Positions 1-29,004 of a DNA stretch of 29,004 nucleotides are shown here, piece after piece (position 1 is the stretch's first letter; each line of letters starts with the position of its first letter). Source of the DNA: a virus (Duplodnaviria; Heunggongvirae; Uroviricota; Caudoviricetes); the IMG/VR virus record IMGVR_UViG_643348547_000007; one strand, written 5' to 3'. Both the position numbers and the translations under genes were made by a program. Under the pieces are notes generated by a model. It was not told where the DNA came from. It saw only the letters and a list, made by a program, of their open reading frames with translations, and did not search any database.

Positions 1-1284
1 TTACAGACTTCTTGAAGGTTGCGCAGCTGCTACAACACGCGGTTGATCTTCCGCGGCATCTTCCAGTGCACTTAAATCACGGTCTTTCACTTCTGGCATT
101 TTCAGCGCAGAGATTAAACCAATCACTGAATATGCCATGATCATAATGGCGATCGGATACCAGGATTCCGTCATGGTGCAGAAAATACCCGCCAGGATAG
201 GACCAAAACCGGAAGCGATAAGACCACCAATTTCTTTAGAAATAGCCATCCGGGTAAAGCGGTTTTTACAGCCGAACATTTCTGCCATGGTAATGTTTTC
301 CAGAGCAAATAATCCCAGCACCGCACAGTTATGAATCACAATCAGTGCAACCATAATGGTGCTCGGGGCATAGCTTTTATCTACGATGATAGAAAGCATT
401 GGCCACGCCAGCACAATCGCAGAGGTATTCATAATAATATACGGGATCCGGCGACCTATTTTATCGGATAACCAACCAAGGAACGGAATGGTCATAAAGC
501 CGAGAATCGAACTGATCATCAATGCATCTGTTGGAATTGCTTTGTTAAACAATAACGTCTGCACTAAATAGCCTGCAAGGAAAGTCTGAATTAAACCGGA
601 GTTACCAGCCTGACCAAAACGCAGCCCTGTTGCCAGCCAGAAGGATTTGCTCTGGAACATGCTACCAGCAGGTGCAGGTTTTGCTGTCGGTTGGTTACTG
701 TCGTTAACCTTCTCAAAGACCGGGCTTTCTTTCAGATTCATACGCAACCAGATAGCAAAGACCATCACGACAACGCTCGCCAGGAAAGGTATACGCCATC
801 CCCACGCCAGCAGTTCCTCTTTACTGAGAATGAAGAACATAAAGGCCCAGATTGCCGTTGCGCTCAAGGTTCCGCAGTTAGTTCCCATAGCCACAAATGA
901 GGAGATAATTCCGCGCTTACCTTTTGGCGCATATTCCGCCAGCATCGTACCGGCACCGGAAATTTCCGCGCCAGCCCCCAGCCCCTGAATAATACGCAGC
1001 GTCACCAGCAAAATTGGCGCAAACACACCAATTTGTGCATAGGTCGGCAGCACACCAATTAAGGTGGTACAGATCCCCATCATGGTGATGGTAATAAAGA
1101 GCACTTTTTTACGCCCTATTCTGTCGCCCATTTTGCCGAAAATAAATGCTCCGACAATACGTGCCACATAACCTGCACCATAGGTTCCCATTGCCAGAAT
1201 TAACGCCATTGCCGTTGACGATTCAGGAAAAAATATTTCATGAAAAACTAACGCTGCGCCGAGCGAATATAACTGGAAATCCAT
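1..1284 (-). CDS. ydfJ: MFS (metabolite:H+ symporter-type) transporter, 427 aa; N-terminus appears to begin inside the first conserved motif, consistent with a 5' end replaced at a prophage junction
   Basis: Complete 427-aa ORF with its stop at positions 1-3; hydrophobic multi-TM protein with MFS-like motifs (GxLxDRxGRKK-type loop). Its position next to ydfK and pin matches the Qin-type prophage context as I recall it. Confidence 0.75.
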   Translation of the reverse strand: MDFQLYSLGAALVFHEIFFPESSTAMALILAMGTYGAGYVARIVGAFIFGKMGDRIGRKKVLFITITMMGICTTLIGVLPTYAQIGVFAPILLVTLRIIQGLGAGAEISGAGTMLAEYAPKGKRGIISSFVAMGTNCGTLSATAIWAFMFFILSKEELLAWGWRIPFLASVVVMVFAIWLRMNLKESPVFEKVNDSNQPTAKPAPAGSMFQSKSFWLATGLRFGQAGNSGLIQTFLAGYLVQTLLFNKAIPTDALMISSILGFMTIPFLGWLSDKIGRRIPYIIMNTSAIVLAWPMLSIIVDKSYAPSTIMVALIVIHNCAVLGLFALENITMAEMFGCKNRFTRMAISKEIGGLIASGFGPILAGIFCTMTESWYPIAIMIMAYSVIGLISALKMPEVKDRDLSALEDAAEDQPRVVAAAQPSRSL

Positions 1285-3021: not shown

Positions 3022-3912
3022 TCAGGCTGCCAGATCATCGTTTCCGATGGAAGCATAATAAGCTTTTTCTGCTTCTGCCGGAGGAGTATGGCCCAGCCTT
3101 TCCAGCAATCGTCGATTGTTATACCAGTCCACCCACGTGAGTGTGGCCAGTTCCACTTCTGCACGGTTTTTCCAGCTCTTACGGTGTATTACCTCCGCTT
3201 TGTAAAGACCATTGATGCTCTCCGCCATCGCGTTGTCATACGAGTCGCCTGTACTTCCTGTTGATGCCAGTAATCCGGCTTCCTTAAGCCGCTGTGTGTA
3301 GGCCAGCGATACATACTGAGAACCTTTATCACTGTGATGGACCGTGCCGGACGGTCGACGGGCCCATAACGCCTGCTCCAGTGCATCCAGCACGAATGTC
3401 GTTTCCATGGACGATGAGACCCGCCACCCCACGATGTATCCGGCAAACACATCAATGATGAACGCCACATAGACGAAGCCCCGCCATGTGCTGACGTAAG
3501 TAAAATCAGCCACCCACAGCTGGTCAGGTCGTTCTGCCACGAACTGACGGTTTACGCGGTCGCCTGCGGCAACGGCTTTCCGGCTGATGGTCGTACGGAC
3601 CTTTTTACCCCGGAGAACACCGGCAAGTCCCATAACCGCCATGAGACGTGCCACAGTGCATCTGGCCACTCTGATACCTTCCCGTAACAACTGACGCCAG
3701 ACTTTACGCACACCGTATACCTTGTGATTTTCATCGTATACGCGCTGTATCTCTTTCTTCAGCCAGTCATCGCGCTGCGCACGGGCACTGCGTTTATCCG
3801 GATGATGTCGCTGTTGCTGACAGTGGTAATACGTTGACGGGGCAATATGCAGTTCGCTGCATAGCGGTCCGACCCCGTACTGCTCACGCAGCTTATCCAG
3901 CAGTGGCATCAT
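3022..3912 (-). CDS. IS629 OrfB (DDE transposase catalytic part, normally made as an OrfAB frameshift fusion), 296 aa
   Basis: ORF overlaps the orfA end in the -1 frame, as is typical of the IS3 family; DDE-type integrase-core sequence. Confidence 0.9.
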
Positions 3913-4235
3913 TTTTTCCAGAGGCGGTCGAACTCCGCCTTCGCAAAATAAGCGGAAGCCTGGCGAAGGATATCGTTACTGCGGCGCAGTTCACGATTTT
4001 CACGTTCCAGCTCTTTCAGACGCTGACGTTCAGCGGTGGTGAGCCCTCCATCACCGCCCCCGGTATCCCGCTCATGCTGGCGAACCCAGACACGCAGAGT
4101 CTCCGGCGTACAGCCAATCTTTGGAGCAATGGAACAAATTGTCGCCCATTGTGAGTCATATTCGCTCTGACTTTCCAGAACCATACGGACTGCCCGTTGA
4201 CGGACTTCGGGGGAAAAACGAGTATTTTTAGTCAT
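3909..4235 (-). CDS. IS629 OrfA (transposase N-terminal, HTH/leucine-zipper part), 108 aa
   Basis: [21 protein letters not shown]... translation; identical ORF present in the second IS copy at 28199-28525. Confidence 0.9.
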
Positions 4236-5185: not shown

Positions 5186-7581
5186 TTAATACTCTCCCCC
5201 ATTTGCGCATCAGTTAATTCTTTATGCCAGAGACGAAGATTTCTCAAATGGCCGAATAGATGACGAGTTCCCGATGTGGCTTGACCTCCAATTCGAATAA
5301 AGGTCCGTGTTTTTACGCCCGTCCACTCCGTTTTCATGGTTTTAGTAGCCTCACCGTTAGAAACTACTCGTTTAGTACCATCAGAATAAATATTAAAACC
5401 ACCAATGAATTTTCGAACATCAGTTCGACCAGCAAACACACTAGAAACGTAAGTACTTGTCGACGCTTTATAAGTTTGCATATAAAGCTGACCGTAATAT
5501 TTCTCAGTTGTGTTAAAAGCGTATGTAATTGACTCAATAGGTGGCACACCAGAAAAATCAAAAATACGCGGTGCTACATTAGGAGGAATATCGCCCCAAT
5601 TTCTATTAACCTCGACCAGGCACGTAAGCGGTCTATTATAGATATTATTTTCAGTTGGGATCGTCACCATATCACTGGAGCGGGTTGCGGGTACAGTTGT
5701 CGTAATAACAAAAGATGAAGCACATCCGCCGTTTTCAAATTGTGGTGTTGCAAGGTAAATATAATCTCCCGCTTCAGTTACACCACCTTTTTTCGGCGCA
5801 TACTGAATCATTGCGCCAATTAAGGTTTCACCTTCAACAGCTTCTATAGTTGCCTCATAGAAAATCCACCCTGTAACCGGATCTTTAGTTGCAGTAGCTG
5901 CTATTCTATTGGCTGCTCCGCCAGTTTTTTCTATTATCAGAGTTCCGAAAGTTAAATAAGCATCTCCTAAAAATGTATAAACCGACCCATCGTATTTTTC
6001 AAAACGCAAACGACAACGAAGACCATCAGGAGCTTTAACCCTGCATGAAACAGTGCAATACTTATTATCGCCACTAACATCAATCCCCCGGGATGCACTG
6101 CATGTATGCAGACTAAGTGCAGATGATTGTCCTGTCATATTATCTTTTGTTCGCATTTTGGCATATGAAAAACCAAATTCATCAACACCATTATTAGTTT
6201 TATCGATATTGCTGGTACTCGTCCATTCAGCGGGGATATTGGATTTAACAAAATAGTTAGTGCGCTGTCCTTCAATCAATAAACCTTCTTTTTCAAATCG
6301 TGGCTCATCAATTTTAGCAACACTAAATACGCCTGATTTATTGATATATGTGGCAGTTGATGCGCGTTTAAACTTTACAACCTTATCGCCAGGCATCGTT
6401 ATTTCATCATCACCAATAACAATCTTTTTATATGACGGCGAAAAGCCCGTAATCATATCCAGTGAATCGTTAAACGGTATCCACACATCGGGAAGCGGCT
6501 GCAAAACTTGTTTATACGGCTCCGCAGCCTGGCTTGCATACTCTCTGGCTGCGTCTTCACTTGCTTTTGCAGCCGTCTGGCTTGCTGCCGATGCTTTCGC
6601 TGAGTTAGCCGCCGCAGTCTCGCTCGCCTTTGCGTTGGTTTCACTGGTTTTTGCAGCTTTTTGACTGTTGGCTGATGCAGAGGCAGAAGAAGCCGCCGCA
6701 CTTGCAGAACCAGCTGCGGCACTCTCGCTTTGGGCTGCTGCATCCTGACTGTTTTTCGCCGCAGTTTCACTGGCTTTGGCATTCGTTTCGCTGGTCTTCG
6801 CTGCCGTCTGGCTGGACTTTGCGTTAGTTTCACTCGTCTTCGCAGCTTTCTGGCTGTTAGCCGCAGCAGTTGCTGATCCAGTTGCTGAAGTCGCAGAACC
6901 GGCTGCCGCGCTCTCGCTTTGGGCTGCTGCAACCTGGCTGTTTTTTGCCGCAGTTTCACTGGCTTTGGCATTCGTTTCGCTGGTCTTCGCTGCCGTCTGG
7001 CTGGACTTTGCGTTGGTTTCGCTCGTCTTTGCGGCTGTCTCGCTATTTTTCGCGTTGGTTTCTGATTTTTTGGCTGCTGTCGCGGAGTTTTCTGATGCAG
7101 TCTGTGAGGTCGCTGCCGCCTGTGCACTATTAGCTGCATTCGTTTCTGAGGTTTTCGCCGCGTTCTTCGATGATGCCGCTGCAGTTTCGGATTTCTTTGC
7201 CGCCGCTGCGCTCTGAGAGGCGGCTTCGGCGTTGCGTGCCGCTTCTTCCACCATTTCCTCAAAACGACGCAATGCCTCCGGCATGACATCATCTTCCGTC
7301 ATGGCACCGAGAAAATCATTCAGCGTACCTGGTCTGGAACCTTCATAGACGGTAATGGTTCCGGCATGTGAAGGCGGAAAACCTTCAACAAGCAGGATAA
7401 CGCTGTACTGGCCATACTCAACATCCATGCTGTAACGCCCGGCTTCATCCGGATTTTCAGAGGCCACCGTGTTCACCAGTACCGTGGTGCTGTTACGCTT
7501 TGCCTTCAGTTGAATAGTGCAGTTCTGTATTGGTTTTCCCGCACCATCTTTCAGCACACCTGAGATTTTTACTGCTGCCAT
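5182..7581 (-). CDS. stf: Side tail fibre protein (lambda Stf-like N-terminal domain, Ala/Ser/Thr-rich fibre repeats, divergent lectin-like C-terminal domain)
   Basis: N-terminus MAAVKISGVLKDG...GTITVYE matches the lambda Stf N-terminal domain from memory; likely start is ATG 7581 with GGAG upstream (the track's 7587 start is a GTG). Central KTSETNAKxSETAAK repeats. Confidence 0.85.
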   Translation of the reverse strand: MAAVKISGVLKDGAGKPIQNCTIQLKAKRNSTTVLVNTVASENPDEAGRYSMDVEYGQYSVILLVEGFPPSHAGTITVYEGSRPGTLNDFLGAMTEDDVMPEALRRFEEMVEEAARNAEAASQSAAAAKKSETAAASSKNAAKTSETNAANSAQAAATSQTASENSATAAKKSETNAKNSETAAKTSETNAKSSQTAAKTSETNAKASETAAKNSQVAAAQSESAAAGSATSATGSATAAANSQKAAKTSETNAKSSQTAAKTSETNAKASETAAKNSQDAAAQSESAAAGSASAAASSASASANSQKAAKTSETNAKASETAAANSAKASAASQTAAKASEDAAREYASQAAEPYKQVLQPLPDVWIPFNDSLDMITGFSPSYKKIVIGDDEITMPGDKVVKFKRASTATYINKSGVFSVAKIDEPRFEKEGLLIEGQRTNYFVKSNIPAEWTSTSNIDKTNNGVDEFGFSYAKMRTKDNMTGQSSALSLHTCSASRGIDVSGDNKYCTVSCRVKAPDGLRCRLRFEKYDGSVYTFLGDAYLTFGTLIIEKTGGAANRIAATATKDPVTGWIFYEATIEAVEGETLIGAMIQYAPKKGGVTEAGDYIYLATPQFENGGCASSFVITTTVPATRSSDMVTIPTENNIYNRPLTCLVEVNRNWGDIPPNVAPRIFDFSGVPPIESITYAFNTTEKYYGQLYMQTYKASTSTYVSSVFAGRTDVRKFIGGFNIYSDGTKRVVSNGEATKTMKTEWTGVKTRTFIRIGGQATSGTRHLFGHLRNLRLWHKELTDAQMGESIK
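6700..7077 (-). repeat. Tandem duplication of about 189 bp (63 codons) within the stf repeat region, embedded in shorter fibre-repeat periodicity
   Basis: CTCTCGCTTTGGGCTGCTGC and the following roughly 100 bp recur at 6722 and 6911 with few mismatches; the protein shows AAKTSETNAKSSQTAAKTSETNAKASETAAKNSQ twice. Confidence 0.6.
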
Positions 7582-7591
7582 ATCCACTCCA

Positions 7592-7618
7592 CAAAAAAGC
7601 CCGCCTGAACCGGCGGGC
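7592..7618 (-). terminator. Intrinsic terminator downstream of lom (stem GCCCGCC/GGCGGGC followed by a U-run on the minus strand)
   Basis: Inverted repeat at 7599-7605 and 7612-7618; on the minus strand it is followed by TTTTTTG (plus-strand A-run 7592-7597). Confidence 0.5.
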
Positions 7619-7645
7619 TGTCATAACACTGTGTTACCTGGCTAA

Positions 7646-8245
7646 TCAGAACTTATAACCGACACCCACGATGAAACCGTCAGTGCGCCAGTCGCCACTG
7701 CCGGAGCCTTCATAAGCAATATCAATGGCCACGGATTCGGTCGGGTTAAACTGCACGCCAGCTCCCCACGCCAGAGACGTGTTGCTGTGGCGATCGTCAT
7801 CACTTCCGGTCAGCACATCGTGCGTTTTCCCCTTGTTGTCAGTTACGCGGAGATAATCCCCGGAGAACGTCGAAACACGGCTGTAAGCCACACCCGCCAT
7901 CGCATACGCGCTGAACCATTCATTCACGCGCACAGACGGCCCCGCCATTACGCTGAACCAGCGGTTACGCACGGAATCTTCATGCCAGCGGGTATCGCTG
8001 TAATGCGTTTTTTGTTCATCTTCTGCGTCGGCATAACTGAAAGACGTAATCAGCCCCAGCGTGTCCGTAAATTCATAACGGTATTTCACGTTAATCCCGT
8101 TCAGATTATCGCTTCCTGGCATATCAGTGTGGGTCTGAAGATACCCGGCGCTTAGTGTGGACTGATGCTCTGCTGCGCTCGCTGGCGTACCAGCGGCAAC
8201 CAGCCAGACTACTGCGGACAGAATAACAGCACATAATTTACGCAT
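7646..8245 (-). CDS. lom: Lom outer-membrane protein (Ail/Lom/PagC family beta-barrel), 199 aa with signal peptide
   Basis: N-terminal signal peptide; C-terminus ...VAIDIAYEGSGSGDWRTDGFIVGVGYKF matches lambda Lom as recalled; located between J and stf as in lambda. Confidence 0.9.
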   Translation of the reverse strand: MRKLCAVILSAVVWLVAAGTPASAAEHQSTLSAGYLQTHTDMPGSDNLNGINVKYRYEFTDTLGLITSFSYADAEDEQKTHYSDTRWHEDSVRNRWFSVMAGPSVRVNEWFSAYAMAGVAYSRVSTFSGDYLRVTDNKGKTHDVLTGSDDDRHSNTSLAWGAGVQFNPTESVAIDIAYEGSGSGDWRTDGFIVGVGYKF

Positions 8246-8275
8246 AATTACCTCTCGCTTTTCTGCAATAAAAAA

Positions 8276-8303
8276 GGCGTCATTTCTGACGCCCGTATTG
8301 GGG
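8276..8303 (-). terminator. Intrinsic terminator between J and lom (stem GGCGTCA/TGACGCC, then a U-run on the minus strand)
   Basis: Inverted repeat at 8286-8292 and 8297-8303 with loop TTTC; on the minus strand it is followed by TTTTTTTATT. Confidence 0.5.
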
Positions 8304-8312
8304 TTATAAAAT

Positions 8313-11300
8313 TCAGCTAATCGTGATGCCTGCAGTGGCTTTCTTCATCACCACAACCAGCAAATCGCTGATACTTGCTGTGGGATACCAGTCATTTACC
8401 AGCCATGCTGACACCGAAAACTCCAGCGTCATGTGACCGTGACCGGCAGGCATATCAATAACGCCACTGTAAATCAGCGTATTATCCAGCGCGGTACGGT
8501 TATAAATTTCAGCACCGTTTTTCCGCACTATCAGACGGCATGAGGAGTAAATATCAGTATGCTCTCTCTCATGTTTAGCGCCGCTGAATGCCACCGCCGG
8601 AATAACAATCTGCCGGTCAAACGGCTGATCGTCATAAATCCTGACGGTAATGGTCCCTGATGGCCACCGTTCCGGTGCACGGGAGTCACGGGGGAAAGCC
8701 TTACCCACTGTTTTAACGAGATCGCCTTCAATCTGGTTTGCAGACAGTTTCCCTCTGATGACACAGTTCTCGTTAATGGTGACATTATTGAGCGTGCCGG
8801 TATTCGCCGTGATGGCTCCACTGATATCCGCATTGCGGGCTGTCAGCCTGCCATCCGGCGTCAGGGAAAACGTCGGAGGATTGCCGGATGACGTGATGCT
8901 CACCGCAAACAGTCGCTTCAGGAACACGTCGTTCATGAACAGCTGATTCCCCTGCGCCACAAATAACGGCGTGGTGTTACCGTTCTCCGGAGTAATCATC
9001 GCAATGCGATCGGCCTGCAGCAGAATGTTACTCAGCGTCTGACCATCGACATCCTCGATCCCCGCGCCAATCCCGGCCACATACGGAATACCCTTCTTCG
9101 TTTTCTGCACCTTCAGCATATACATGGCATTCAGATTATCGCGCGTGTCTGACTGAACCCGCTGGATTTGCTGTATGGTCACGGCCTGGTCACCCAGTTT
9201 TTTATCCGTGGTCGAGGCAATTTCACTCCCTTTTTCATCCACGTACTGACGGACCTGTGCTATCTGCCGGGCGTTTTCTGACTGGCCCTGGCTGACTGTC
9301 TGCTTGATTTCACTTTGCTTTTTGTCCACGTACTGGCGGACCTGTGCTATCTGTCGGGTATTTTCCTCACTGCTCTGACTGACCGTCTGTGAGATTTCAC
9401 TGCTGACACGGTCCACTTTCTGACTCACCTGCGCGATGGCCAGCGTCTGATCCTCATTCTTTTTCGCAACCAGCTGCGTGAGGCTGTTTTCCGCCTCCCC
9501 GATTTTCCGGGTCACTTCCGCAATATCCGTGTCCATCCGCTGACGGATGTCTTCTTCCAGTTGTCCGATATTCTCTTCCAGTTGAGTGACATCCGATCGC
9601 AGGGCTGACGCATCAATGCGCTTTTTCAGTGCCTGCCCCAGCAGCGTCTCATCTATCAGACCACGGAAAAATTCCAGATACCCTTTTGCATCATTGCTGG
9701 CCTGCCCGCTGGCTTCCACAAATGCAGACTTGCCCACCAGGTTGACACTGCGCACATAAAACCAGAAATCCATCCCCGGCTTAATCCGATCGCCCTGGAC
9801 AGTCCACTGACTGCCGGTCCCCAGATAACGGGCAGATTTTTCCACCTGTGCCGTGTTCGTGATGCGTTTTTCTGAGAACCAGAATTCAAACTGTATCGTC
9901 GGATCATACACCGCAAGACGCGGGACCGCCGTTATCTGAAAATACCCCGGCGTCAGCTCAATGGTGGCGGGTTTTGCAGGCGCGTTAATCCGGAAGGTGG
10001 TGGTCGCAGGTTCGCCCTGCTGGCCGTAGCTGTTAATGGCCCGCACCGTCAGGGTGTATTCCCCCAGCGGCAGACCACTGAAACGGTGCTCCGTGTCTGC
10101 GGTGATGGCGGTGCTCACCAGACGGCTGTCTTCTCCGCTTCCGCTGGTCAGACGCAGACTGAAGCGCACACCCTTCACCACCCGCGGCGTGTCCCATTTC
10201 GCCTGTGCCAGATACTGACCGTCAGCTGCACTCACCTCCACCGTCAGGTGCTGCACTGCCGGTGGGATAACGCTGTTCAGGCTGCCTGACTGCGGCTCAA
10301 AGCGGGCACCGTTATCCACAATGGCTTCTTTTTCCGGTACGTGCTGCACCGCCGTGATGGCGAACGTGCCGTCCGTGTTTTCCCGGATGGAGACACAGCG
10401 GAACAGGCGACGACGCAGTGACGGCAGGGAGAGTCCCCACACCCCGTATGTCTCCACACCATCCGGCAGGGTGCTGACCTGTATCCGGTCAGGCGCGGGG
10501 TGTGCGGTGATGGCCACGCTCGCCGGCTTACCGCTGCCGTTAATCAGATTAACAGTGGCCGTGCCGGTCTCCGGCAGTGTCACCTCCCGGTCCAGCGTCA
10601 GGGTACGGCTGGCGGCATCGATGGACAGGACACGTCCGCCGGTCATGGTCCCGGCATAGTCGTTATCACAGATTTCAATGATGTCACCGGGTGTGTGCCG
10701 CAGCCCCTGAGACCCGAGCGTGAAATCCACCGTCTGCGTTTCCAGCAGTTCGGTCTTTATCACCCACAGCCCGGCACGGTGGGCCTGACCGCGGCTGGTA
10801 CAGCCGAACGCGTCCATCTTCAGCAGGTTGCGTCCGTAGCGCAGTATGGCTTCCGGGTCTTCCACCAGTTCCGTGGAGGTCTGCCAGCCGTTCTGCGGGT
10901 CGGTGTAATTCACCTCCACCGCCGTGTGCCGGTCCTTCAGGGCACTGAAGCTGTAGCGGAACCCCACGCCGTTATCATCCACCACCACATCGCTGTTGGT
11001 GTACGGCCACACCACATCCGACGGGCGGTCCTGAACGAACGTCAGCGTCTGACCGTTCCATACCGGCATACAGCGCATCGCAGAGCAGAAATCACTGAGA
11101 ACGTCCCACGCCTTACGCTGTTGTGCCAGGTACGCATTAAAGGTCATCCGCGGCTCGGTCCCCCCGAAACCATCCGGGACCGTCTGGTCGCAGTACTGCC
11201 CGATGGCATACAGCGCCCACTTGTCCACATCCGCCGCCCCCAGACGTTTTCCCATGCCGTAGCGCGGGTGAGTCAGCATGTCCCACAGGCACCAGGCCGG

Positions 11301-12113
11301 GTTGTTGCTGTATGCCGGTTTCAGACTGCCGTCCCAGATACCACTGTACGTGCGTTTTTCCGGGTCATAGTTTGACGGCACCTGGATGATGCGACCGCGG
11401 ATATGGTAGTTCACCGTCATCTGCTGGCCGCCGAACTGCTCCGCATCCACCTGCAGCCCCACAATGGCCGTGTTCGGGTAGCACTGTTTCACATCGATGA
11501 TTTCGGTGTATGACGACCACAGCGTCTTATTCTGCAGCTGGTCCGTGGTGCTGTCCGCCGTCTCCCTGACCATCCGGATGTTAAAGGGCCGGGGAGGCAG
11601 ATTATCCAGAATCACCGAGGCCAGGAACTGCGAGGTGGTCTTGCCGTTAATGGTGACATCCTTTTCCGTCACCCAGCGGCCATTACGCTGTAACTGAATC
11701 AGAATCCGGACAGAGGAAGGATTACGGTCGCCCTTTGACGTGGTCTCCACCAGTGACTGCACCCCGAAGGTAACCCGCAGGCGGTCAATGTTCGCGGACG
11801 TAATGGTGCGCGTCACCGGTTTTGCCTTCGTCACTTCCACGCCCAGTCCGGTTTCAGCTCCGGAGGACTCAAAGCCTTCCGGTGGTGTCTGCTCCTGCTC
11901 CCCGGCACGCCAGACCGCGGTCACACCGTGTATCACGGGATTGCCGTCCGTGTCCGTCAGTGGGGTTTTGTTCACCAGAATACTCTGCAGTCCCTTCACC
12001 GGACCTTCTATCGGTCCCTCACCAATCGCATCAATCACACTCATCATCTGCGTGGATTTGAGATTATCCTTCGCCTCACGAGGCGTGTGTGCCTTACCGC
12101 CACCTTTTCCCAT
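8313..12113 (-). CDS. J: Tail tip / host specificity protein J (central tail fibre), 1266 aa
   Basis: Collinear with lambda J along its length ([22 protein letters not shown]... N-terminus; [10 protein letters not shown] and C-terminal regions conserved), with an extra internal repeat-containing segment. Confidence 0.95.
9238..9410 (-). repeat. Two tandem copies of an imperfect ~87-bp repeat (plus a partial third upstream) inside J, encoding repeated [10 protein letters not shown](K/E)K-type motifs
   Basis: TCCACGTACTG(A/G)CGGACCTGTGCTATCTG... recurs at 9238 and 9323; the protein shows ...[25 protein letters not shown]...[19 protein letters not shown]... Confidence 0.55.
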
Positions 12114-12216
12114 ACAGCCTTCCCCTGAATAAATTAACCGCCACTTGCCATTCCGTACAGAAGTCGGATATCCTTCGCCCGAAAAGCATGAAACACATTT
12201 CTGCCATGCTAAAGAG

Positions 12217-12252
12217 AAACCCCGGTATCAGCAGATACCGGGGTTTTCTTTC
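12217..12252. terminator. Strong hairpin (10-bp stem CCCCGGTATC/GATACCGGGG, loop AGCA) flanked by T-rich runs on both strands; candidate bidirectional intrinsic terminator in the I-J intergenic region
   Basis: Perfect inverted repeat at 12220-12229 and 12234-12243; plus strand continues TTTTCTTTC; minus strand continues TTTCTCTTT. Confidence 0.55.
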
Positions 12253-12318
12253 ATGCCCACCGATAATCCTGTTGGTTAAAACCGGTAATGGCATAAAAAT
12301 TCTGAATATCTTCACATT

Positions 12319-12346
12319 TTCACAAACTGACTGTGGCGCGTATAAT
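12319..12346 (+). promoter_or_regulatory. Sigma70-like promoter candidate (TTCACA, 16-nt spacer, TATAAT) antisense to the tail operon
   Basis: TTCACA at 12319-12324 and a perfect TATAAT at 12341-12346, read directly; no experimental support. Confidence 0.35.
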
Positions 12347-12352
12347 TTCGCT

Positions 12353-12450
12353 GCGTTAATTTTTTTGTCGTGATATAAGAATAATTCCTTACACTTAATC
12401 TTCGTAACTCTCCCGCAGTTCCTGTCCGCGATCACTGCGGGATTTTTTTA
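12353..12450 (+). ncRNA. Candidate small RNA of about 100 nt, from the promoter-like element to the intrinsic terminator, in the I-J intergenic region
   Basis: Predicted start about 7 nt after the -10; ends at the terminator 12411-12450; no credible ORF or RBS inside; sits in a 343-bp gap between I and J that is not part of lambda's I-J arrangement as I recall it. Confidence 0.3.
12411..12450 (+). terminator. Intrinsic terminator on the plus strand (stem TCCCGCAG/CTGCGGGA, 16-nt loop, then TTTTTTT)
   Basis: Inverted repeat at 12411-12418 and 12435-12442, T-run 12443-12449; on the minus strand no U-run follows, so it is orientation-specific. Confidence 0.5.
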
Positions 12451-12456
12451 TTCTTT

Positions 12457-13137
12457 TTACCCCTGCCGCCCGATAACCACGACCTTTCCGCCCCCGCCTT
12501 CATCACGGGTGCTGATGTCCTGGGATATACGGCGGGAGCCAACCAGCATTTCCCCGTAAGGCACCGGCATCGGGTTCCCCTGGGCAATCATGTTATCCAG
12601 CGAGGAAAAGTACGTGTTCTGTCTGCCGTTATCCGTTGCGCGGTAATCCGGTGTTTTTGCCTTCGGGGCCAGCATCTGTGCCACACCGCCCAGTATCATG
12701 CTGGCCCCCAGTGAAAACAGCATCGTGGTGGCAGAAAAACCACCGGCTGCCAGGGCTGAACCCCATAACGCCATCGAGGCACCGGCCGTGAAGAAAGAGC
12801 CCACGATGGCTGCCGCCCCCAGCACAATCTGCAGTCCGCCCTTTCCGGCTCCGGCCAGTCGCGGCACAATGTGGATGACCGTTCCCTCACCCAGCTGTTC
12901 GTGAAGACGGGCGTACACCGCCTCCGGTGCCGTGTCATCACCGGCAATACGTATCTGGTACCAGCCTTCGTTCATCTGACGGCGAAAGCCCGGCATCTGC
13001 ATCGACAGGGCGCGAATGGCTTCCGCTGCCGTGTTCACATACAGGCTGAGGCGGCGGCCAAATCGTTGCAAATCCCCGTGAAGGCAGATGCGTGCCAGTG
13101 GCGGTGACGCCAGACAGAATGCGTTCGTCGTTGCCAT
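12457..13137 (-). CDS. I: Tail assembly protein I, 226 aa
   Basis: Matches lambda gpI from memory (ARICLHGDLQRFGRR, QNTYFSSLDNM, C-terminal GGG...VVVIGR). Confidence 0.9.
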   Translation of the reverse strand: MATTNAFCLASPPLARICLHGDLQRFGRRLSLYVNTAAEAIRALSMQMPGFRRQMNEGWYQIRIAGDDTAPEAVYARLHEQLGEGTVIHIVPRLAGAGKGGLQIVLGAAAIVGSFFTAGASMALWGSALAAGGFSATTMLFSLGASMILGGVAQMLAPKAKTPDYRATDNGRQNTYFSSLDNMIAQGNPMPVPYGEMLVGSRRISQDISTRDEGGGGKVVVIGRQG

Positions 13138-13778
13138 TTTTCGGAATACCTCTCCCGTTTACTCAGTTGTTCAGGCAGATGGTGAAGCAGCTCACCGTTG
13201 CCGCAGTAAATGGCGGCATGGTTCGGTACCGAAGCACCAAAGCAGCACAGCAGAATATCGCCCGCCTGTGCAGAGGACAGGGGCACCCGGTAAAAGCCGG
13301 TGACCGCCATATTGTCCAGGTAAAGGTTCTGACCGTTGCGCCACCAGTCATCCTCGCGATGAAAATCCGGCATTTCAGTCCCCGCCAGATGGTATGCATC
13401 CCGGAACAGCGTGTAACAGTCCGTCACCCCGTGCTCAAAGCGCCGTCCCGTCAGGTGCGGCACGCAGCGGAATTTGTGAATGTCACCCCGGCAGACCAGC
13501 CACCAGGGCAGTGCGCTTTTTATCTGCAGCCGCCGGTCAGCCTCGCTCAGCCAGGGCAGCCCACCGGGATGACTGTGGACCAGTGCCACAATCTCCCCCT
13601 GCATCTCTGCCCGCAGCCAGTCTTCCGGTGCGATACGAAAATACGCCTCCGGCTCTGCGGAAATATTCACACAAGGGATATACCGCTCCCCCTCCGGCGT
13701 GCTTATCACGAAGCCGCACGACTCCGCAGGCGCACACCGCCGGGCATGCGCCAGAATCGCTGATTCTGTCTGTGTCAT
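13035..13778 (-). CDS. K: Tail assembly protein K (JAB/MPN metalloprotease-like and NlpC/P60-like domains), 247 aa as the longest frame
   Basis: JAMM-type motif HSHPGG...SEAD and a Cys/His NlpC-P60-like region; positioned between L and I. The ORF overlaps I by 103 nt, so the true C-terminus is uncertain. Confidence 0.8.
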   Translation of the reverse strand: MTQTESAILAHARRCAPAESCGFVISTPEGERYIPCVNISAEPEAYFRIAPEDWLRAEMQGEIVALVHSHPGGLPWLSEADRRLQIKSALPWWLVCRGDIHKFRCVPHLTGRRFEHGVTDCYTLFRDAYHLAGTEMPDFHREDDWWRNGQNLYLDNMAVTGFYRVPLSSAQAGDILLCCFGASVPNHAAIYCGNGELLHHLPEQLSKRERYSEKWQRRTHSVWRHRHWHASAFTGICNDLAAASACM

Positions 13779-13783
13779 TGGAT

Positions 13784-14482
13784 TTACTGCGAAAGTTTGT
13801 TAATGGAAAGGAAACCGCCAAAATTAGCCACCATGCCGCGCATCTCACACCCGCGCATGCACTTGCTGCATCTGTCCTTACGGATATCCGTGGTGGGGTT
13901 GTCGAACTCATCCGCCACCGCAGGACCGTTATACCCGCATTCATCTCCCCGGTAATCCCACATACAGGTGTTCGCCAGCATGATGCGACCGGGAAACAGC
14001 GCCCCGTCCGTCTCGGTCGGTGTAGCCAGCACAAACGAGGCCGTCATGGCTGTCAGCTGCGACATCTGCTCCACCACCCAGCGGTCACTCAGCTCCTGCT
14101 CCGGGTCCGCCTCCGGATTGCCCGCAACGAAATTCACCGCATCCAGAAAACGGGCATACACCCGGCGGCGGACCACCGTGGCCCCCACCAGACTCTGCAG
14201 GTCTTCCGCCATCCCGGTGACCAGACCGAACAGATTGGACACCGTCAGCGACGGTCTGGCACTGCTGCCCCGGCCGTTCATCTCAAAGCCGCTGCCGTCA
14301 ATCGGGTATGCCTCATACTTACGCCCCTGCCAGGTGACCGGCTCCCCTTTTTCATTCAGCTCATTACAGAAAAAATACCGCTCACCACCCTGTACCGTCA
14401 GGTCGATTTCCCAGAGTACCACCCGCGGTGACTGCTCTGACTTAACCGACTCGTTCAGACTTTCTTCGCGAATATCCTGCAT
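13784..14482 (-). CDS. L: Minor tail protein L, 232 aa
   Basis: Lambda gpL-like, including the C-terminal cysteine cluster (CSKCMRGCE...). Confidence 0.95.
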   Translation of the reverse strand: MQDIREESLNESVKSEQSPRVVLWEIDLTVQGGERYFFCNELNEKGEPVTWQGRKYEAYPIDGSGFEMNGRGSSARPSLTVSNLFGLVTGMAEDLQSLVGATVVRRRVYARFLDAVNFVAGNPEADPEQELSDRWVVEQMSQLTAMTASFVLATPTETDGALFPGRIMLANTCMWDYRGDECGYNGPAVADEFDNPTTDIRKDRCSKCMRGCEMRGMVANFGGFLSINKLSQ

Positions 14483-14811
14483 CAGTTCACCACCTGCTTA
14501 AACTCCGCGCTGAACTCAACGCGCAACATCCCGACCCGCGCAGACCACCCGGCACAGGTCACCTTTATCTGCCGGTATGCATAGGGTGGCTTCCACAAAA
14601 ATGCCTTCCAGCCACCGTGCTCTGCCAGGAACGCTTCCAGATGCCGGGCCTCCTCCCGGGTCACGGAAAGCGTCACCCTGTATGTTTTCAGGTCAGCATT
14701 CAGCCCTGCCGCCATACGCTGTGAGTACCCGTCACCAAAACGCACTTCACGCACCGATGGCTGCGAGTTCACCTCCATATCCGGCTTCACTTTCCAGCGA
14801 AAGGTTTTCAT
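14482..14811 (-). CDS. M: Minor tail protein M, 109 aa
   Basis: Lambda gpM-like; stop/start overlap with L and with H, as expected for a coupled tail operon. Confidence 0.95.
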   Translation of the reverse strand: MKTFRWKVKPDMEVNSQPSVREVRFGDGYSQRMAAGLNADLKTYRVTLSVTREEARHLEAFLAEHGGWKAFLWKPPYAYRQIKVTCAGWSARVGMLRVEFSAEFKQVVN

Positions 14812-17369
14812 CGACCGCTCCCTGATAACAGACCGCCATCACGCAACTGCAGCCGGAGTTCATCCTGTGCCCCCTTGCGGGCCATGTCATACACCGCCTT
14901 CATCAGCTGCGACCCCGCCTGTCCGTTGATACCGTCGTTCTGAATCACCACGTGATTGTTCTGATTAAAATTAATACCTTCGGCCCGCCGCATCTGCGCC
15001 GGACTTCCGGCACCGCCGACATAACCACCTTCCGCATACCCGCGCATCAGACGATACAGGTTGCCGACACCAATCCGGCTGGTTGCCTCCTTCGTGAAGA
15101 CAAATTCACCACGGTGAACAATCCCCGCTGGCTCATATTTGCCGCCGGTTCCCGTAAATCCTCCGGTTGCAAAATGGAATTTCGCCGCAGCGGCCTGAAT
15201 GGCTGTACCGCCTGACGCGGATGCGCCGCCACCGGTAGCCCCGCCAATGGCGCTGCCGATACTCCCGACAATCCCCACCATTGCCTGCTTAAGCAGAATT
15301 TCTGTCATCATGGACAGCACGGAGCGGGTGAAGCTGCGCCAGTTCTGCTCACTGCCGGTCAGCATCGCCGCCATATTCTGCGCAATACCATCAAAGGTCT
15401 GCGTGGCAGCACTTTTAACCTGCGACATACTGTCCGTGGCACTCTCTTTCCACTCGCTCCAGCCGGACCTGAGGCCTGCCATCCAGTTCCCGCGAAGCAG
15501 GTCTTCAGCCGCCCAGGTCTTTTTCTGCTCTGACATGACATTATTCAGCGCCAGAGGATTATCGCCATACTGTTCCTTCAGGCGCTGTTCTGTGGCTTCC
15601 CGTTCTGCCTGCCGGTCAGTCAGCCCCCGGCTTTTCGCATCAATGGCGGCCCGTTTTGCCCGTTGCTGCTGTGCGAATTTATCCGCCTGCTGCGCCAGCG
15701 CGTTCAGGCGCTCCTGATACGTAACCTTGTCGCCAAGTGCAGCCAGCTGGCGTTTGTACTCCAGCGTCTCATCTTTATGCGCCAGCAGGGATTTCTCCTG
15801 TGCAGACAGCTGGCGACGTTGCGCCGCCTCCTCCAGTACCGCGAACTGACTCTCCGCCTTCCACAAATCCCGGCGCTGCTGGCTGATTTTCTCATTCGCT
15901 CCGGCATGCTTCTCCAGCGTCCGGAGTTCTGCCTGAAGCGTCAGCAGGGCAGCATGAGCACTGTCTTCCTGACGATCGCCCGCAGACACCTTCACGCCGG
16001 ACTGTTTCGGCTTTTTCAGCGTCGCTTCATAATCCTTTTTCGCCGCCGCCATCAGCGTGTTGTAATCCGCCTGCAGGATTTTCCCGTCTTTCAGTGCCTT
16101 GTTCAGTTCTTCCTGACGGGCGGTATATTTCTCCAGCGGCGTCTGCAGCCGTTCGTAAGCCTTCTGCGCCTCTTCGGTATATTTCAGCCGTGACGCTTCG
16201 GTATCGCTCTGCTGCTGCGCATTTTTGTCCTGTTGAGTCTGCTGCTCAGCCTTCTTTCGGGCGGCTTCAAGCGCAAGACGGGCCTTTTCACGATCATCCC
16301 AGTAACGCGCCCGCGCTTCATCGTTAACAAAATAATCATCCTTGCGCAGATTCCAGATGTCGTCTGCTTTCTTAAACGCAGCCTCTGCCTTAATCAGCAT
16401 CTCCTGCGCGGTATCAGGACGACCAATATCCAGCACCGCATCCCACATGGATTTGAATGCCCGCGCTGTCCTGTCTGCCCAGGTCTCCAGCGTGCCCATG
16501 TTCTCTTTCAGGCGGCGGGTCTGGTCATCAAACCCTTTCGTTGCGGCCTCGTTCGCCGCCTGCAATGCCCCGGTTTCATCGCCGGAACGCTGCAACTGAG
16601 CAACATACGCAATCTGCTCCGCCGTCACGTTATGGAACTGCTTCGCCATCGCAATCAGCCCCGACGTCGGGTCAGTGGTCAGTTTTCCGAAAGCCTCTGC
16701 AACCTTGTCCACCTCCACACCGGATGCAGAAGCAAAACGCGCGACACTCTGGTTGATGGCATCAAACTGTTCACCACCACGCACACCGGCATTCACCATG
16801 GCTGCCAGTGACTCACTCGCCTGGTTAAACGTCAGCCCTGCGGCCTGTCCGGCTCTGGAGAGCGTCAGCATGCGATCGGCAGTCAGTCCGGACTGATTAC
16901 CGGAAAGAACCAGGGTTTTATTAAACGCTGAAAGCGTGGAATCTCCCTGGTACCAGGCGTACACCAGCGCACCTGTCGCCACCGCCAGCGAGGTGACCCC
17001 GACCATCGGCAGGGTGATCGCACCGGCAAGCCCCCTGAACATGGGGATCATCCCGCCGAAGGAGTCCTTCACCTGACCGCCCTGTTGCAGCAGGATCAGC
17101 CAGGGATTCTGACCACCGGCAAGCTGCGTGGCGATATCCGTAAACTGTGCGGGCAGGGTTCGCATGGCCGCTTTATACTGCCCGACGGAAATCCCGGCTT
17201 TTTGTGCAGCCAGCGCCTGGCGGCTCAGGCCCTGTTCAACAGCACTGGCGGTTTTTCTGGCGTCGGTATCCAGACCTGAAAAATGACGCCTTACCCGGCT
17301 CATCTGCTCATCGAAACGGACAGCATCCAGACTAAGGTCAATAACAAGATCACCAACCGGCTGGGACAT
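14808..17369 (-). CDS. H: Tail tape measure protein H, 853 aa
   Basis: Same length as lambda gpH as I recall it; coiled-coil-rich centre and glycine-rich C-terminal region; position between T and M. Confidence 0.95.
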   Translation of the reverse strand: MSQPVGDLVIDLSLDAVRFDEQMSRVRRHFSGLDTDARKTASAVEQGLSRQALAAQKAGISVGQYKAAMRTLPAQFTDIATQLAGGQNPWLILLQQGGQVKDSFGGMIPMFRGLAGAITLPMVGVTSLAVATGALVYAWYQGDSTLSAFNKTLVLSGNQSGLTADRMLTLSRAGQAAGLTFNQASESLAAMVNAGVRGGEQFDAINQSVARFASASGVEVDKVAEAFGKLTTDPTSGLIAMAKQFHNVTAEQIAYVAQLQRSGDETGALQAANEAATKGFDDQTRRLKENMGTLETWADRTARAFKSMWDAVLDIGRPDTAQEMLIKAEAAFKKADDIWNLRKDDYFVNDEARARYWDDREKARLALEAARKKAEQQTQQDKNAQQQSDTEASRLKYTEEAQKAYERLQTPLEKYTARQEELNKALKDGKILQADYNTLMAAAKKDYEATLKKPKQSGVKVSAGDRQEDSAHAALLTLQAELRTLEKHAGANEKISQQRRDLWKAESQFAVLEEAAQRRQLSAQEKSLLAHKDETLEYKRQLAALGDKVTYQERLNALAQQADKFAQQQRAKRAAIDAKSRGLTDRQAEREATEQRLKEQYGDNPLALNNVMSEQKKTWAAEDLLRGNWMAGLRSGWSEWKESATDSMSQVKSAATQTFDGIAQNMAAMLTGSEQNWRSFTRSVLSMMTEILLKQAMVGIVGSIGSAIGGATGGGASASGGTAIQAAAAKFHFATGGFTGTGGKYEPAGIVHRGEFVFTKEATSRIGVGNLYRLMRGYAEGGYVGGAGSPAQMRRAEGINFNQNNHVVIQNDGINGQAGSQLMKAVYDMARKGAQDELRLQLRDGGLLSGSGR

Positions 17370-17763
17370 ATCTCACACCTCCCGGAATCCCCGCTGAAGC
17401 CATCATTAATGCGGCATCATCCACCATGACATCCGCCACATCCACAGACGATAAAATATCGCGCCCTCCGTCCCCACCGAACCGGACGCCTCCGGCAAGT
17501 CCTGCCGCTTTCTGCATCAGCATTTTGTCCTCATCCGGCCTCTCCACCTGCTCTTCCTCATGCCGGGGGACAAGCAGACTGAAATCAGAGGGATGCATAT
17601 CCGGATCGCAAAAAAACAGGCTGAGTACAGCGTACGTCAGCCCGGAAAAATGCATATCCAGCTGGGTATCCTGAAAATAATGCGTGCGGTAAAAACGGTG
17701 CCAGTCGGCATATTCGGTGGATGTCATCCCGGCAAGCATGGCGCGCCAGTCGGGTCTCCCCAT
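17350..17763 (-). CDS. T: T portion of the G-T tail assembly chaperone, expressed by a -1 frameshift from G
   Basis: The frame continues from the G slippery site in the -1 register (GKVFDGELNFALRLAREMGRPDWRAM...), giving the G-T fusion spanning 17350-18221. Confidence 0.85.
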   Translation of the reverse strand: MGRPDWRAMLAGMTSTEYADWHRFYRTHYFQDTQLDMHFSGLTYAVLSLFFCDPDMHPSDFSLLVPRHEEEQVERPDEDKMLMQKAAGLAGGVRFGGDGGRDILSSVDVADVMVDDAALMMASAGIPGGVRYVPAGW

Positions 17764-17789
17764 CTCACGCGCCAGTCTGAGGGCAAAGT

Positions 17790-18221
17790 TCAGCTCGCCG
17801 TCGAAGACTTTCCCGCAGAAAAATCATCATCAGTCAGCGTGTTATTTTTCGCCACTTCAGTAATATCAGTATCCGGACGAACAGCTTCGATCATCCCGGA
17901 CAGGCACAACACCACGTCTTCCGCCCGGGCAATGGCATCGGCAGGCCAGGTGGTGAGCACTTCCTGCTCTATCTTCATCACGGCCTCATTCATTGACGGT
18001 GACTGCGTTTTCTGTGGATGGTTATGCCACAGGGACATCGCCACCAGAAACGCGCCGGTTCTGACAAGATCTTCCACACTCACCTGCAGGTTGCCGCTGG
18101 CTTCAGCCTCTTCTGCCCGCCGTTTCAGGAGGGCAAGATGCTCAATACGCTGCAGCGCAGACAGCTCAGAAAGCGTGACGGATACACCGTTATATTCAAA
18201 TTGTTCTGTTTTCAGGAACAT
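17790..18221 (-). CDS. G: Tail assembly chaperone G, 143 aa
   Basis: MFLKTEQFEYNGVSVTLSELSALQRIEHLAL... matches lambda gpG from memory. Confidence 0.9.
   Translation of the reverse strand: MFLKTEQFEYNGVSVTLSELSALQRIEHLALLKRRAEEAEASGNLQVSVEDLVRTGAFLVAMSLWHNHPQKTQSPSMNEAVMKIEQEVLTTWPADAIARAEDVVLCLSGMIEAVRPDTDITEVAKNNTLTDDDFSAGKSSTAS
17808..17814 (-). other. Programmed -1 ribosomal frameshift slippery heptamer G GGA AAG at the 3' end of G
   Basis: Minus-strand GGGAAAG lies 5 codons before the G stop, the same heptamer and placement as lambda G-T as recalled; the downstream -1 frame is open into T. Confidence 0.8.
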
Positions 18222-25273: not shown

Positions 25274-25476
25274 AACCTCACTCCCAGCGGACGACGGCGA
25301 CGGCGGGTTGTCCCCAGTACCGACTCCGCATCATTGATCGCCCGGTTAAGCTCATCCAGAGAAGCTGCCGTATATTCAATTCTGCGACCATCTTTCTGGA
25401 CAGACACCACCCGTTTACCGGTTAATAAATCAAGGCGCGCCTGACGCAGCGCCTGCAGTTCAGCGACTGTAACCAT
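25270..25476 (-). CDS. W: Head-tail connector protein W, 68 aa
   Basis: Same length as lambda gpW as I recall it; start overlaps the A stop region. Confidence 0.9.
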   Translation of the reverse strand: MVTVAELQALRQARLDLLTGKRVVSVQKDGRRIEYTAASLDELNRAINDAESVLGTTRRRRRPLGVRL

Positions 25477-27388: not shown

Positions 27389-27869
27389 CGAGTAAATCCG
27401 GTAATTTATCCCCCGCCCGCGCACACTGATTTGCCCCCTTCGCAATAAGGGTTTTCAGATGGTCAAGATGGCGCGGTGTTAAATCAGGAAACTGTCGCTG
27501 CATGGATAAAGGGATGGAATCAAGCGTACTGGATAACGCCATTGCCAGCTTGCTGAGGGCAAAAATACAGAACCCGGTGTCAATAAGTTTTCCTTTTGAC
27601 ACCTCATTTTTTAACTGCTGTGTAACAGCCTGTTCTGCTGTCAGTTCCCATCTGGCAATAAGCAATTTCTCCTCATAGTCGTCTTCGCTATCGCCATCAG
27701 GCACATCGTTTTTACTTCTTCTCAGATACGATATGTAAAAATCGCGCCAGGCATCCAGATCCAGTTGCCCTCGCTTATTCGATATCGGGGCACCCGGCAA
27801 TTTCTGCAATCTGCGAAGCTGGCGATCGGTCAGACTTAAATGCCTGGCAACTTCAGTCTGCGTAGCCAC
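27360..27869 (-). CDS. nu1: Terminase small subunit (Nu1-type) with N-terminal HTH; GTG start
   Basis: C-terminal two-thirds resemble lambda Nu1; the N-terminal DNA-binding region differs from lambda; GTG at 27867-27869 with GAGG upstream; 3' end overlaps A. Confidence 0.8.
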   Translation of the reverse strand: MATQTEVARHLSLTDRQLRRLQKLPGAPISNKRGQLDLDAWRDFYISYLRRSKNDVPDGDSEDDYEEKLLIARWELTAEQAVTQQLKNEVSKGKLIDTGFCIFALSKLAMALSSTLDSIPLSMQRQFPDLTPRHLDHLKTLIAKGANQCARAGDKLPDLLDEYIRATTE

Positions 27870-28198: not shown

Positions 28199-28525
28199 AT
28201 GACTAAAAATACTCGTTTTTCCCCCGAAGTCCGTCAACGGGCAGTCCGTATGGTTCTGGAAAGTCAGAGCGAATATGACTCACAATGGGCGACAATTTGT
28301 TCCATTGCTCCAAAGATTGGCTGTACGCCGGAGACTCTGCGTGTCTGGGTTCGCCAGCATGAGCGGGATACCGGGGGCGGTGATGGAGGGCTCACCACCG
28401 CTGAACGTCAGCGTCTGAAAGAGCTGGAACGTGAAAATCGTGAACTGCGCCGCAGTAACGATATCCTTCGCCAGGCTTCCGCTTATTTTGCGAAGGCGGA
28501 GTTCGACCGCCTCTGGAAAAAATGA
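28199..28525 (+). CDS. IS629 OrfA (second copy), 108 aa
   Basis: Translation identical to the copy at 3909-4235. Confidence 0.9.
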
Positions 28526-28939
28526 TGCCACTGCTGGATAAGCTGCGTGAGCAGTACGGGGTCGGACCGCTATGCAGCGAACTGCATATTGCCCCGTCAA
28601 CGTATTACCACTGTCAGCAACAGCGACATCATCCGGATAAACGCAGTGCCCGTGCGCAGCGCGATGACTGGCTGAAGAAAGAGATACAGCGCGTATACGA
28701 TGAAAATCACAAGGTATACGGTGTGCGTAAAGTCTGGCGTCAGTTGTTACGGGAAGGTATCAGAGTGGCCAGATGCACTGTGGCACGTCTCATGGCGGTT
28801 ATGGGACTTGCCGGTGTTCTCCGGGGTAAAAAGGTCCGTACGACCATCAGCCGGAAAGCCGTTGCCGCAGGCGACCGCGTAAACCGTCAGTTCGTGGCAG
28901 AACGACCTGACCAGCTGTGGGTGGCTGATTTTACTTACG
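28522..28939 (+). pseudogene. IS629 OrfB, 3'-truncated or interrupted after about 139 codons
   Basis: Identical to copy 1 OrfB up to ...QLWVADFTY, then unrelated sequence (GVPGVQGGHGCLNEPRVCLEY) to the window end. Confidence 0.8.
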
Positions 28940-29004
28940 GTGTGCCCGGAGTTCAGGGCGGGCATGGATGCTTAAATGAACCGCGAGTCTGTCTGGAATA
29001 TTGA

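Follow-up and report, generated by a model that had tools for sequence, protein, structure and literature searches.

In lambda, Q-modified RNA polymerase transcribing the late operon reads through terminators, and E. coli has bidirectional intrinsic terminators that can in principle stop polymerase from either direction and are mostly described where genes converge. For the tail genes of siphophages, three GenBank records label a feature at the boundary between I and J (I|J) as 'terminator', namely those of HK75 (14460–14483), KP36 (25461–25488) and the E. coli phage AHP24 (17529–17555), the latter two being virulent T1-like phages (Drexlerviridae in their records). A literature search on the I–J terminator of lambda or HK97 returned no functional study. 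Among small RNAs (sRNAs), the closest described are PasB of EPEC and EcOnc22, EcOnc23 and EcOnc24 of EHEC. PasB is an 83-nt Hfq-dependent sRNA of strain E2348/69 (NC_011601, 1466343–1466261), for which the Northern probe was AATCCCGCAGTGATCGCGGAGCT (Pearl Mizrahi et al. 2021, PMC8550237, Table S6). EcOnc22/23/24 were reported as Hfq-CRAC peaks, migrate at ~85 nt on Northern blots and are destabilised in the absence of hfq (Tree et al. 2014, PMC4104026, Table S2). To these known sRNAs and 'terminator' labels we add a PasB homolog in the stretch of viral DNA analysed here and a neighbouring hairpin that is older than the sRNA at this site.

The analysed stretch, termed the window, comprises 29,004 nucleotides of a Caudoviricetes virus (IMG/VR record IMGVR_UViG_643348547_000007). 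The long open reading frames around the hairpin all lie on the minus strand, and Pfam assigned the genes of a lambda-type tail module to them. The hairpin, its tails and its surroundings are as follows:

7646–8245, minus strand: Lom (Pfam)
8313–12113, minus strand: tip attachment / host specificity protein J (Pfam)
12114–12456: I–J gap of 343 bp, housing the hairpin
12185–12210, both strands: second, weak hairpin AGCATG-(14 nt)-CATGCT, with TTTTC after it on the minus strand (reading, 81-nt fold)
12211–12219, complement, minus strand: T-rich tail on the late-operon sense strand, TTTCTCTTT as read 5' to 3' on that strand (direct reading)
12217–12246, both strands: perfect 13-bp stem-loop AAACCCCGGTATC-AGCA-GATACCGGGGTTT (direct reading, fold, hairpin scan)
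12244–12252, plus strand: T-rich tail TTTTCTTTC (direct reading)
12457–13137, minus strand: tail assembly protein I (Lambda_tail_I; Pfam)
13035–13778, minus strand: K (JAB + NlpC/P60; Pfam)

Since I and J are both encoded on the minus strand, the hairpin is in the path of sense transcription through a lambda-type late operon, with the J start codon 104 nt downstream on the sense strand. This is where the first-pass annotation had placed it, and the two Pfam-assigned genes flanking it support that placement. The same annotation had described a 10-bp GC-rich stem with a tetraloop and U-runs on both strands, in full agreement with direct reading. The GC-rich core (12220–12229 / 12234–12243) consists of seven G-C and three A-T pairs closed by a 4-nt loop, and three further A-T pairs lengthen it to the 13-bp stem; the first three Ts of the plus-strand tail are also able to pair with the AAA at 12217–12219. 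Stem and loop fall within the range of intrinsic terminators (~5–14 bp GC-rich stem, 3–8 nt loop), and a U-rich tract follows the stem directly on its 3' side on the plus (UUUUCUUUC) as well as on the minus strand (UUUCUCUUU). Scanning the window for perfect stems of at least 9 bp with loops of 3–8 nt returned this hairpin alone, and in 200 runs of a first-order Markov simulation, hairpins of 10 bp or more arose 0.2 times on average and those of 13 bp or more never. Folded as a 58-nt RNA, the element reached -28.4 kcal/mol on the plus strand (z = -6.6) and -28.7 kcal/mol on the minus strand (z = -5.6), and none of 200 shuffles was as good on either strand. The hairpin carries the sequence features of an intrinsic (Rho-independent) terminator. 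A consensus terminator scan of the window did not list it; judging from the rules of that scan, this is because the stem was extended through G-T pairs that consumed the first Ts of the tail, and the omission thus appears to be a limit of the scan rather than of the hairpin. Taken alone it is an ordinary element resembling an intrinsic terminator, and its value comes from its context.

Further along the operon, the terminator scan detected two more candidates on the sense strand:

8275–8294, minus strand: terminator-like hairpin between J and lom, GGGCGTCA-GAAA-TGACGCCT followed by T5
7598–7619, minus strand: terminator-like hairpin after lom, AGCCCGCC-GGTTCA-GGCGGGCT followed by T5

J is bracketed by two sense-strand terminator-like hairpins, and in the distal late operon three successive junctions each carry a terminator-like site. 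A promoter scan with a threshold of at least 9/12 found no sense-strand promoter-like site in 7000–18000, which we count against the terminator reading, as it offers no origin for the transcripts to be stopped in a lysogen.

Between the hairpin and I, the gap contains a second element on the opposite strand:

12319–12346, plus strand: near-consensus promoter TTCACA-16-TATAAT (11/12) of a PasB-type sRNA gene (promoter scan), conserved in Sakai and E2348/69
about 12353–12449, plus strand, antisense to the late operon: homolog of the PasB / EcOnc22 sRNA family (alignment, Hfq-CRAC peak mapping)
12416–12441, plus strand: stem of the sRNA gene's own terminator, followed by T7 at 12443–12449, ~95 nt past the promoter

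By its genome coordinates, PasB of E2348/69 is encoded antisense to I and J, in the gap that separates them, and EcOnc22/23/24 map to the I–J gaps of the Sakai prophages Sp15, Sp14 and Sp11, which are mutually identical. The sRNA of the window is encoded in the same gap as its described relatives and shares promoter, core motif and terminator with them; aligned with the published 83-nt PasB, positions 12367–12449 (about) are identical at 58 of 83 sites. The PasB body is the most variable stretch, with 67–75% identity where the flanks are 100% identical. Neither RefSeq nor the phage records annotate anything at 12319–12449 on the plus strand.

Placing the Sakai peaks required a coordinate calibration: the PR' start and tR' end of the Stx1 phage (Sy et al. 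2020, PMC7547250) gave a shift of +135 from NC_002695.1 to NC_002695.2, and a second calibration via AgvB1 gave about +140. In the range from 1.94 to 2.93 Mb, coordinates given in the Sakai sRNA papers (Tree 2014, Sy 2020, Huecker 2017) carry an offset of +135 to +140 relative to the current RefSeq record. An apparent EcOnc22 Hfq peak on the Sakai-type hairpin turned out to be an artefact of uncorrected NC_002695.1 coordinates, as after the +135 correction the peak falls on the PasB body. The hairpin at 12217–12246 is not part of the PasB transcript: it lies outside that RNA, with 73 nt between its end and the -35 box of the downstream PasB promoter. It adjoins a known sRNA gene without belonging to it.

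Rfam searches of the whole window at the gathering threshold matched only IS3-type frameshift pseudoknots elsewhere, with no match at this locus, and the best sub-threshold scores for 12000–12600 at E up to 10 were below 20 bits; the families AgvB (RF02702), AsxR (RF02703), Esr41 and STnc100 were among those that did not match. An identity with AgvB, AsxR or HnrS could be ruled out, as the sequences differ, and AgvB and HnrS lie near the Sp10 lysis genes and not in a tail region. For annotation, the gap merits a PasB-family non-coding RNA and a terminator, not the hypothetical ORFs of some records and studies.

To describe variation in the gap, we scanned IMG/VR with the PasB terminator as an anchor, which yielded 120 gap segments (63 unique). 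In the interval separating the J start from the PasB promoter, they contain one of two unrelated modules, the window type of 185 nt or the Sakai/E2348 type of 82 nt (Sakai Sp11, Sp14 and Sp15, EPEC PP6). The two occupy the same slot and are interchangeable by recombination; left modules and PasB variants assort independently, and Sakai Sp12 combines a window-type hairpin with an E2348-type PasB. Of 5426 complete E. coli genomes, 1445 carry the window-type module; 1441 of the 1450 records that match it do so with at least 99% identity, and 13 phage records have identical copies. Among species-representative genomes, an exact-pattern scan for its hairpin hit a single record, from Escherichia albertii, a distant blastn search with 12114–12300 returned identical copies only, and relatives collected via protein I were all 98–100% identical and uninformative on diversity. 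As the module is near-clonal, it permits no covariation test.

The Sakai/E2348-type hairpin differs from the window type in sequence, carries its U tract (UUGUUUUU) on the minus, that is the sense, strand only, and shows variation within the stem (CAGGCAYCC-CGGA-GGRTGCCTG). Its 10 distinct sequences show full compensation at one pair (C-G to U-A), and each of the four cells with a C-A mismatch on the plus strand reads as a G-U pair on the minus strand, so that pairing amounts to 99% on the minus versus 96% on the plus strand in this small sample. The minus-strand pairing bias, together with the one-sided U tract, points to selection of the structure on the late-operon sense RNA, within the limits of the sample size. 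In the window type, a 1-nt deletion in the A tract of Sakai Sp12 improves the minus-strand U tract to TTTTCTTT. The sole stem variant of this type, CCTCGG, found in one sequence, pairs as U-G on the plus strand but is mismatched on the minus strand, and this single case runs against the prediction of a sense-strand role. A gap that had seemed to represent a third class (L022, IMG/VR 2541047932_000014) is in fact the window type interrupted by an IS element, inserted immediately beside the hairpin. IS elements have hit the I–J gap in at least two independent prophages, this one and Stx2a_WGPS2 (L215, 1–487).

We then compared I|J junctions across phages, using lambda and junctions from a 'spread' tblastn list, obtained with the J N-terminus as query against a phage collection and picked before their sequences were seen, 16 distinct junctions in all; at one more locus, WGPS2, the gap is interrupted by an IS element. 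Read on the sense strand as stem, loop, stem and tail, the hairpins are:

Lambda / E26: AAACCGCC-TGCG-GGCGGTTT, then TGTCATTT
Salmonella Fels-1: the stem of lambda with another loop
Sakai type: CAGGCAYCC-CGGA-GGRTGCCTG, then TTGTTTTT
Window type: AAACCCCGGTATC-TGCT-GATACCGGGGTTT, then CTCTTT
HK75: GGCCACC-TTCG-GGTGGC, then T6
Serratia Ulliraptor: AAAGCCCC-TGTCCT-GGGGCTTT, then T5
T1-like LHE71: AACCCGC-CTTGC-GCGGGTT, then T6
Pseudomonas BR141a: AACCGCC-AAGA-GGCGGTT, then T5
Klebsiella KP36: GCCTGGGGGC-ATA-GCCTCCGGGC, then CTTTTGTCG
Acinetobacter Acba_14: AAGGCGC-TTTA-GCGCCTT, then T4
AHP24: AACCCGC-CTAGT-GCGGGTT, then T4

Wherever the sampled gap measures 55 nt or more (11 junctions), it contains a sense-strand hairpin followed by a U tract, in a small sample that has no matched control junctions, and the stems are unrelated. 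The five junctions without a hairpin (Burkholderia PhiBP82.1, Vibrio pVa-6, Pseudomonas phiPMW, Dickeya Setonix, Psychrobacter Psymv2) have gaps of at most 24 nt or overlapping genes. Every sampled lambda-like or T1-like tail module with room for it thus has a terminator-like hairpin before J, an element for which we found no functional study.

The lambda gap measures 60 bp, and its hairpin, at about 15465–15490 (NC_001416), ends 27 nt before the J ATG. Lambda and the window agree in junction and strand, in a short GC stem with a tetraloop and AAA/TTT flanks, and in a T-rich tail followed by the J ribosome-binding site; they differ in the stem sequence, which is unrelated, in the number of G-C pairs (five versus seven) and in the distance to J (27 versus 104 nt). 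The lambda gap also has no sRNA gene, and its antisense U tract is weaker. The terminators annotated in HK75, KP36 and AHP24 likewise resemble the window hairpin in position and structure, without sequence similarity, and are confined to the sense strand.

Located in the I–J gap, in sense orientation and ahead of the J ribosome-binding site, the window hairpin groups by position with the annotated I|J terminators of HK75, KP36 and AHP24 and with the unannotated one of lambda. Its stem is unrelated to those of lambda, HK75 and KP36, and we regard it as an analogue by position and structure, not as a sequence homologue. This kept position and architecture, with a sequence that has turned over, is what one would expect if a functional element had been replaced repeatedly. 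The terminator-like character noted in the first-pass annotation accordingly finds a counterpart in lambda and many relatives, where the junction structure is maintained, and in the three records with a 'terminator' label. What did not hold is the implied peculiarity of this operon: because lambda has an I–J hairpin but no PasB, the hairpin predates the sRNA insertion and is an ancestral feature of the I|J boundary. Particular to the window variant is its two-sidedness, as the Sakai type, lambda and HK75 have the better or the only U tract on the sense strand. In LHE71 (L220, 297–380) and AHP24 (L227, 288–376), the I|J terminator is followed within ~10–15 nt by a -10-like box (TATAAT and TAGAAT, respectively), which suggests that J there starts a new transcription unit. 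Virulent T1-like phages are not known to have Q-type antitermination.

On balance, with a probability that we place slightly above even, the hairpin would be this prophage family's intrinsic terminator at the I|J boundary of lambda-like tail-tip modules. Against the observed background of its structure, rarity and position, the conservation of that position despite sequence turnover and the strand bias of the sister variant, we infer termination, Q read-through, attenuation of J and an insulating role. Unmodified polymerase producing the late-operon sense (minus-strand) RNA would stop ~100 nt before J, keeping J silent unless antitermination is on, and Q-modified polymerase from the late promoter would presumably pass the hairpin in lytic growth. 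A PasB-type cassette with its own promoter and terminator, in opposite orientation, would later have been inserted between the I stop codon and the hairpin. With A/T tracts on both sides of the stem, the hairpin should also block plus-strand transcripts, and those leaving J would be halted before the PasB promoter, making the element a two-way insulator. Like the bidirectional intrinsic terminators of E. coli, it has a symmetric stem placed between an A tract and a T tract, but it differs from that class in lying inside a co-directional operon, beside an antisense sRNA gene.

Since PasB/EcOnc22 is a documented lysogen-expressed, Hfq-dependent sRNA, there is real transcription to insulate. The earlier suggestion that the hairpin could insulate moron transcription thereby gains a concrete candidate object, the PasB/EcOnc22-type sRNA gene ~70 nt away on the antisense strand. 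The hairpin would thus mark the old I|J boundary, within a gap that has since become the landing site of a lysogen-expressed regulatory RNA. If termination holds true, it would define the transcriptional isolation of the sRNA and of lom-type morons from the virion genes in lysogens, and J expression would depend strictly on antitermination. Term-seq data exist for Sakai (Sy et al. 2020, PMC7547250).

The U tracts on both strands also allow the hairpin to be read from the other side, as the terminator of a further, so far undescribed sRNA of ~72 nt on the plus strand (about 12181–12252), antisense to the J leader and in tandem with PasB, which we regard as unlikely. Such an RNA would start with a 5' stem-loop, formed by the weak hairpin 12185–12210 on the plus strand and exposing a CA-rich loop AAACACAUUUCUGC, and continue through an A-rich ARN-like linker AAAGAGAAA into the terminator and U tail, a layout similar to that of Hfq-binding sRNAs (81-nt fold, z = -6.8) and with a plus-strand tail that at least equals the minus-strand one. 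At the right distance lies the sole promoter candidate for a plus-strand RNA ending at the hairpin:

12145–12174, plus strand: weak sigma-70-like site TTGCCA-18-TATCCT (9/12; promoter scan)

Sites scoring 9/12 are, however, at chance level, with four found versus 5.1 expected in 11 kb. The window-type module is ~100 nt longer than the Sakai type or lambda, a length that a bare terminator does not need, and XECs209, a 378-nt ORF of the Sakai Sp12 gap, was reported with plus-strand RNA-seq and ribosome-footprint reads over 57% of its length (Huecker et al. 2017, PMC5597208), compared with ~25% attributable to PasB alone, the read positions not being given. On the other hand, no Hfq-CRAC peak was reported in the Sp12 I–J gap, whereas PasB-type peaks are listed in Sp11, Sp14 and Sp15 (PMC4104026), and Rfam gave no match. 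A second sRNA would furthermore leave unexplained the sense-strand hairpins at the same junction in lambda, HK75, the T1-like phages and others. The wider proposal, that the gap is a two-gene sRNA island present in roughly one in four complete E. coli genomes and the I|J terminator a general siphophage checkpoint isolating J, appears improbable to us.

A role on the RNA level starts from the same lambda biology as the terminator reading: Q-modified polymerase is expected to ignore terminators, so that lytic-phase selection would fall on the RNA and any role in lytic growth would be post-transcriptional. In its strict form, the stem-loop would act only in this way, on the Q-antiterminated late mRNA, and set the I-to-J ratio without termination, either as a block to 3'-to-5' exonucleases that stabilises the upstream tail-gene segment or as a 5' stabiliser of a processed J mRNA, possibly following cleavage of a duplex between PasB and the late transcript. 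The conservation of the hairpin on the sense RNA and the perfect complementarity of PasB to a late-transcript segment immediately upstream of the hairpin are consistent with this. We nevertheless give it a low probability, as the U tract right after the stem, which termination needs and an exonuclease block does not, is kept at 11 of 11 junctions, and the -10-like boxes after the hairpin in the virulent T1-like LHE71 (TATAAT) and AHP24 (TAGAAT) resemble an operon boundary. Least probable is a functionless relic of module-boundary recombination or an old insertion, kept through the recent spread of the segment. The window-type segment is near-clonal and confined to Escherichia, and its flanks are equally identical between the compared phages, with no sign of special constraint, as a relic would predict; yet a perfect 13-bp stem is not expected by chance at this scale, and unrelated, independent hairpins stand at the same place in 10 other phage groups, one of them with a compensatory change. 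An intrinsic terminator at the I|J boundary remains our preferred reading.

ORFs that have been placed across the gap are not convincing as genes. XECs209, published as a 'novel gene', is a plus-strand ORF that takes in the hairpin together with PasB and its promoter; the frame in Sakai Sp12 (L131, 13415/13424–13792) depends on a 1-nt deletion absent from the window, and since the frame is not conserved we rejected it as a gene. Its equivalent in the window would lie at about 12136–12515 on the plus strand, where the actual plus-strand ORF runs from 12089 to 12373 and has no visible Shine-Dalgarno sequence. PasB and other plus-strand RNA offer a simpler explanation for the RNA-seq and footprint signal of XECs209. 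ASU11 gp9c, assessed from a read-off translation, and an 8-codon ORF (MKENPGIC) at 12254 both lack a plausible ribosome-binding site at normal spacing.

The Rfam matches elsewhere in the window are an identical pair of IS3-family frameshift pseudoknots (ALIL, 120 bits each) at 3838–3954 on the minus and 28480–28596 on the plus strand. They mark inverted IS copies that bracket the whole morphogenesis region, with IS ORFs at 3022–3912 / 3909–4235 on the minus and 28199–28525 / 28522–29004 on the plus strand. The copy at 28199 lies just beyond the ORF 27360–27869, taken from its position alone as the small terminase subunit, and the late operon may therefore be severed from the Q/PR' region. At the opposite end, an ORF of the MFS transporter family (1–1284, minus strand) runs off the left end of the window and is presumably a host gene beside the tail-fibre end of the prophage.
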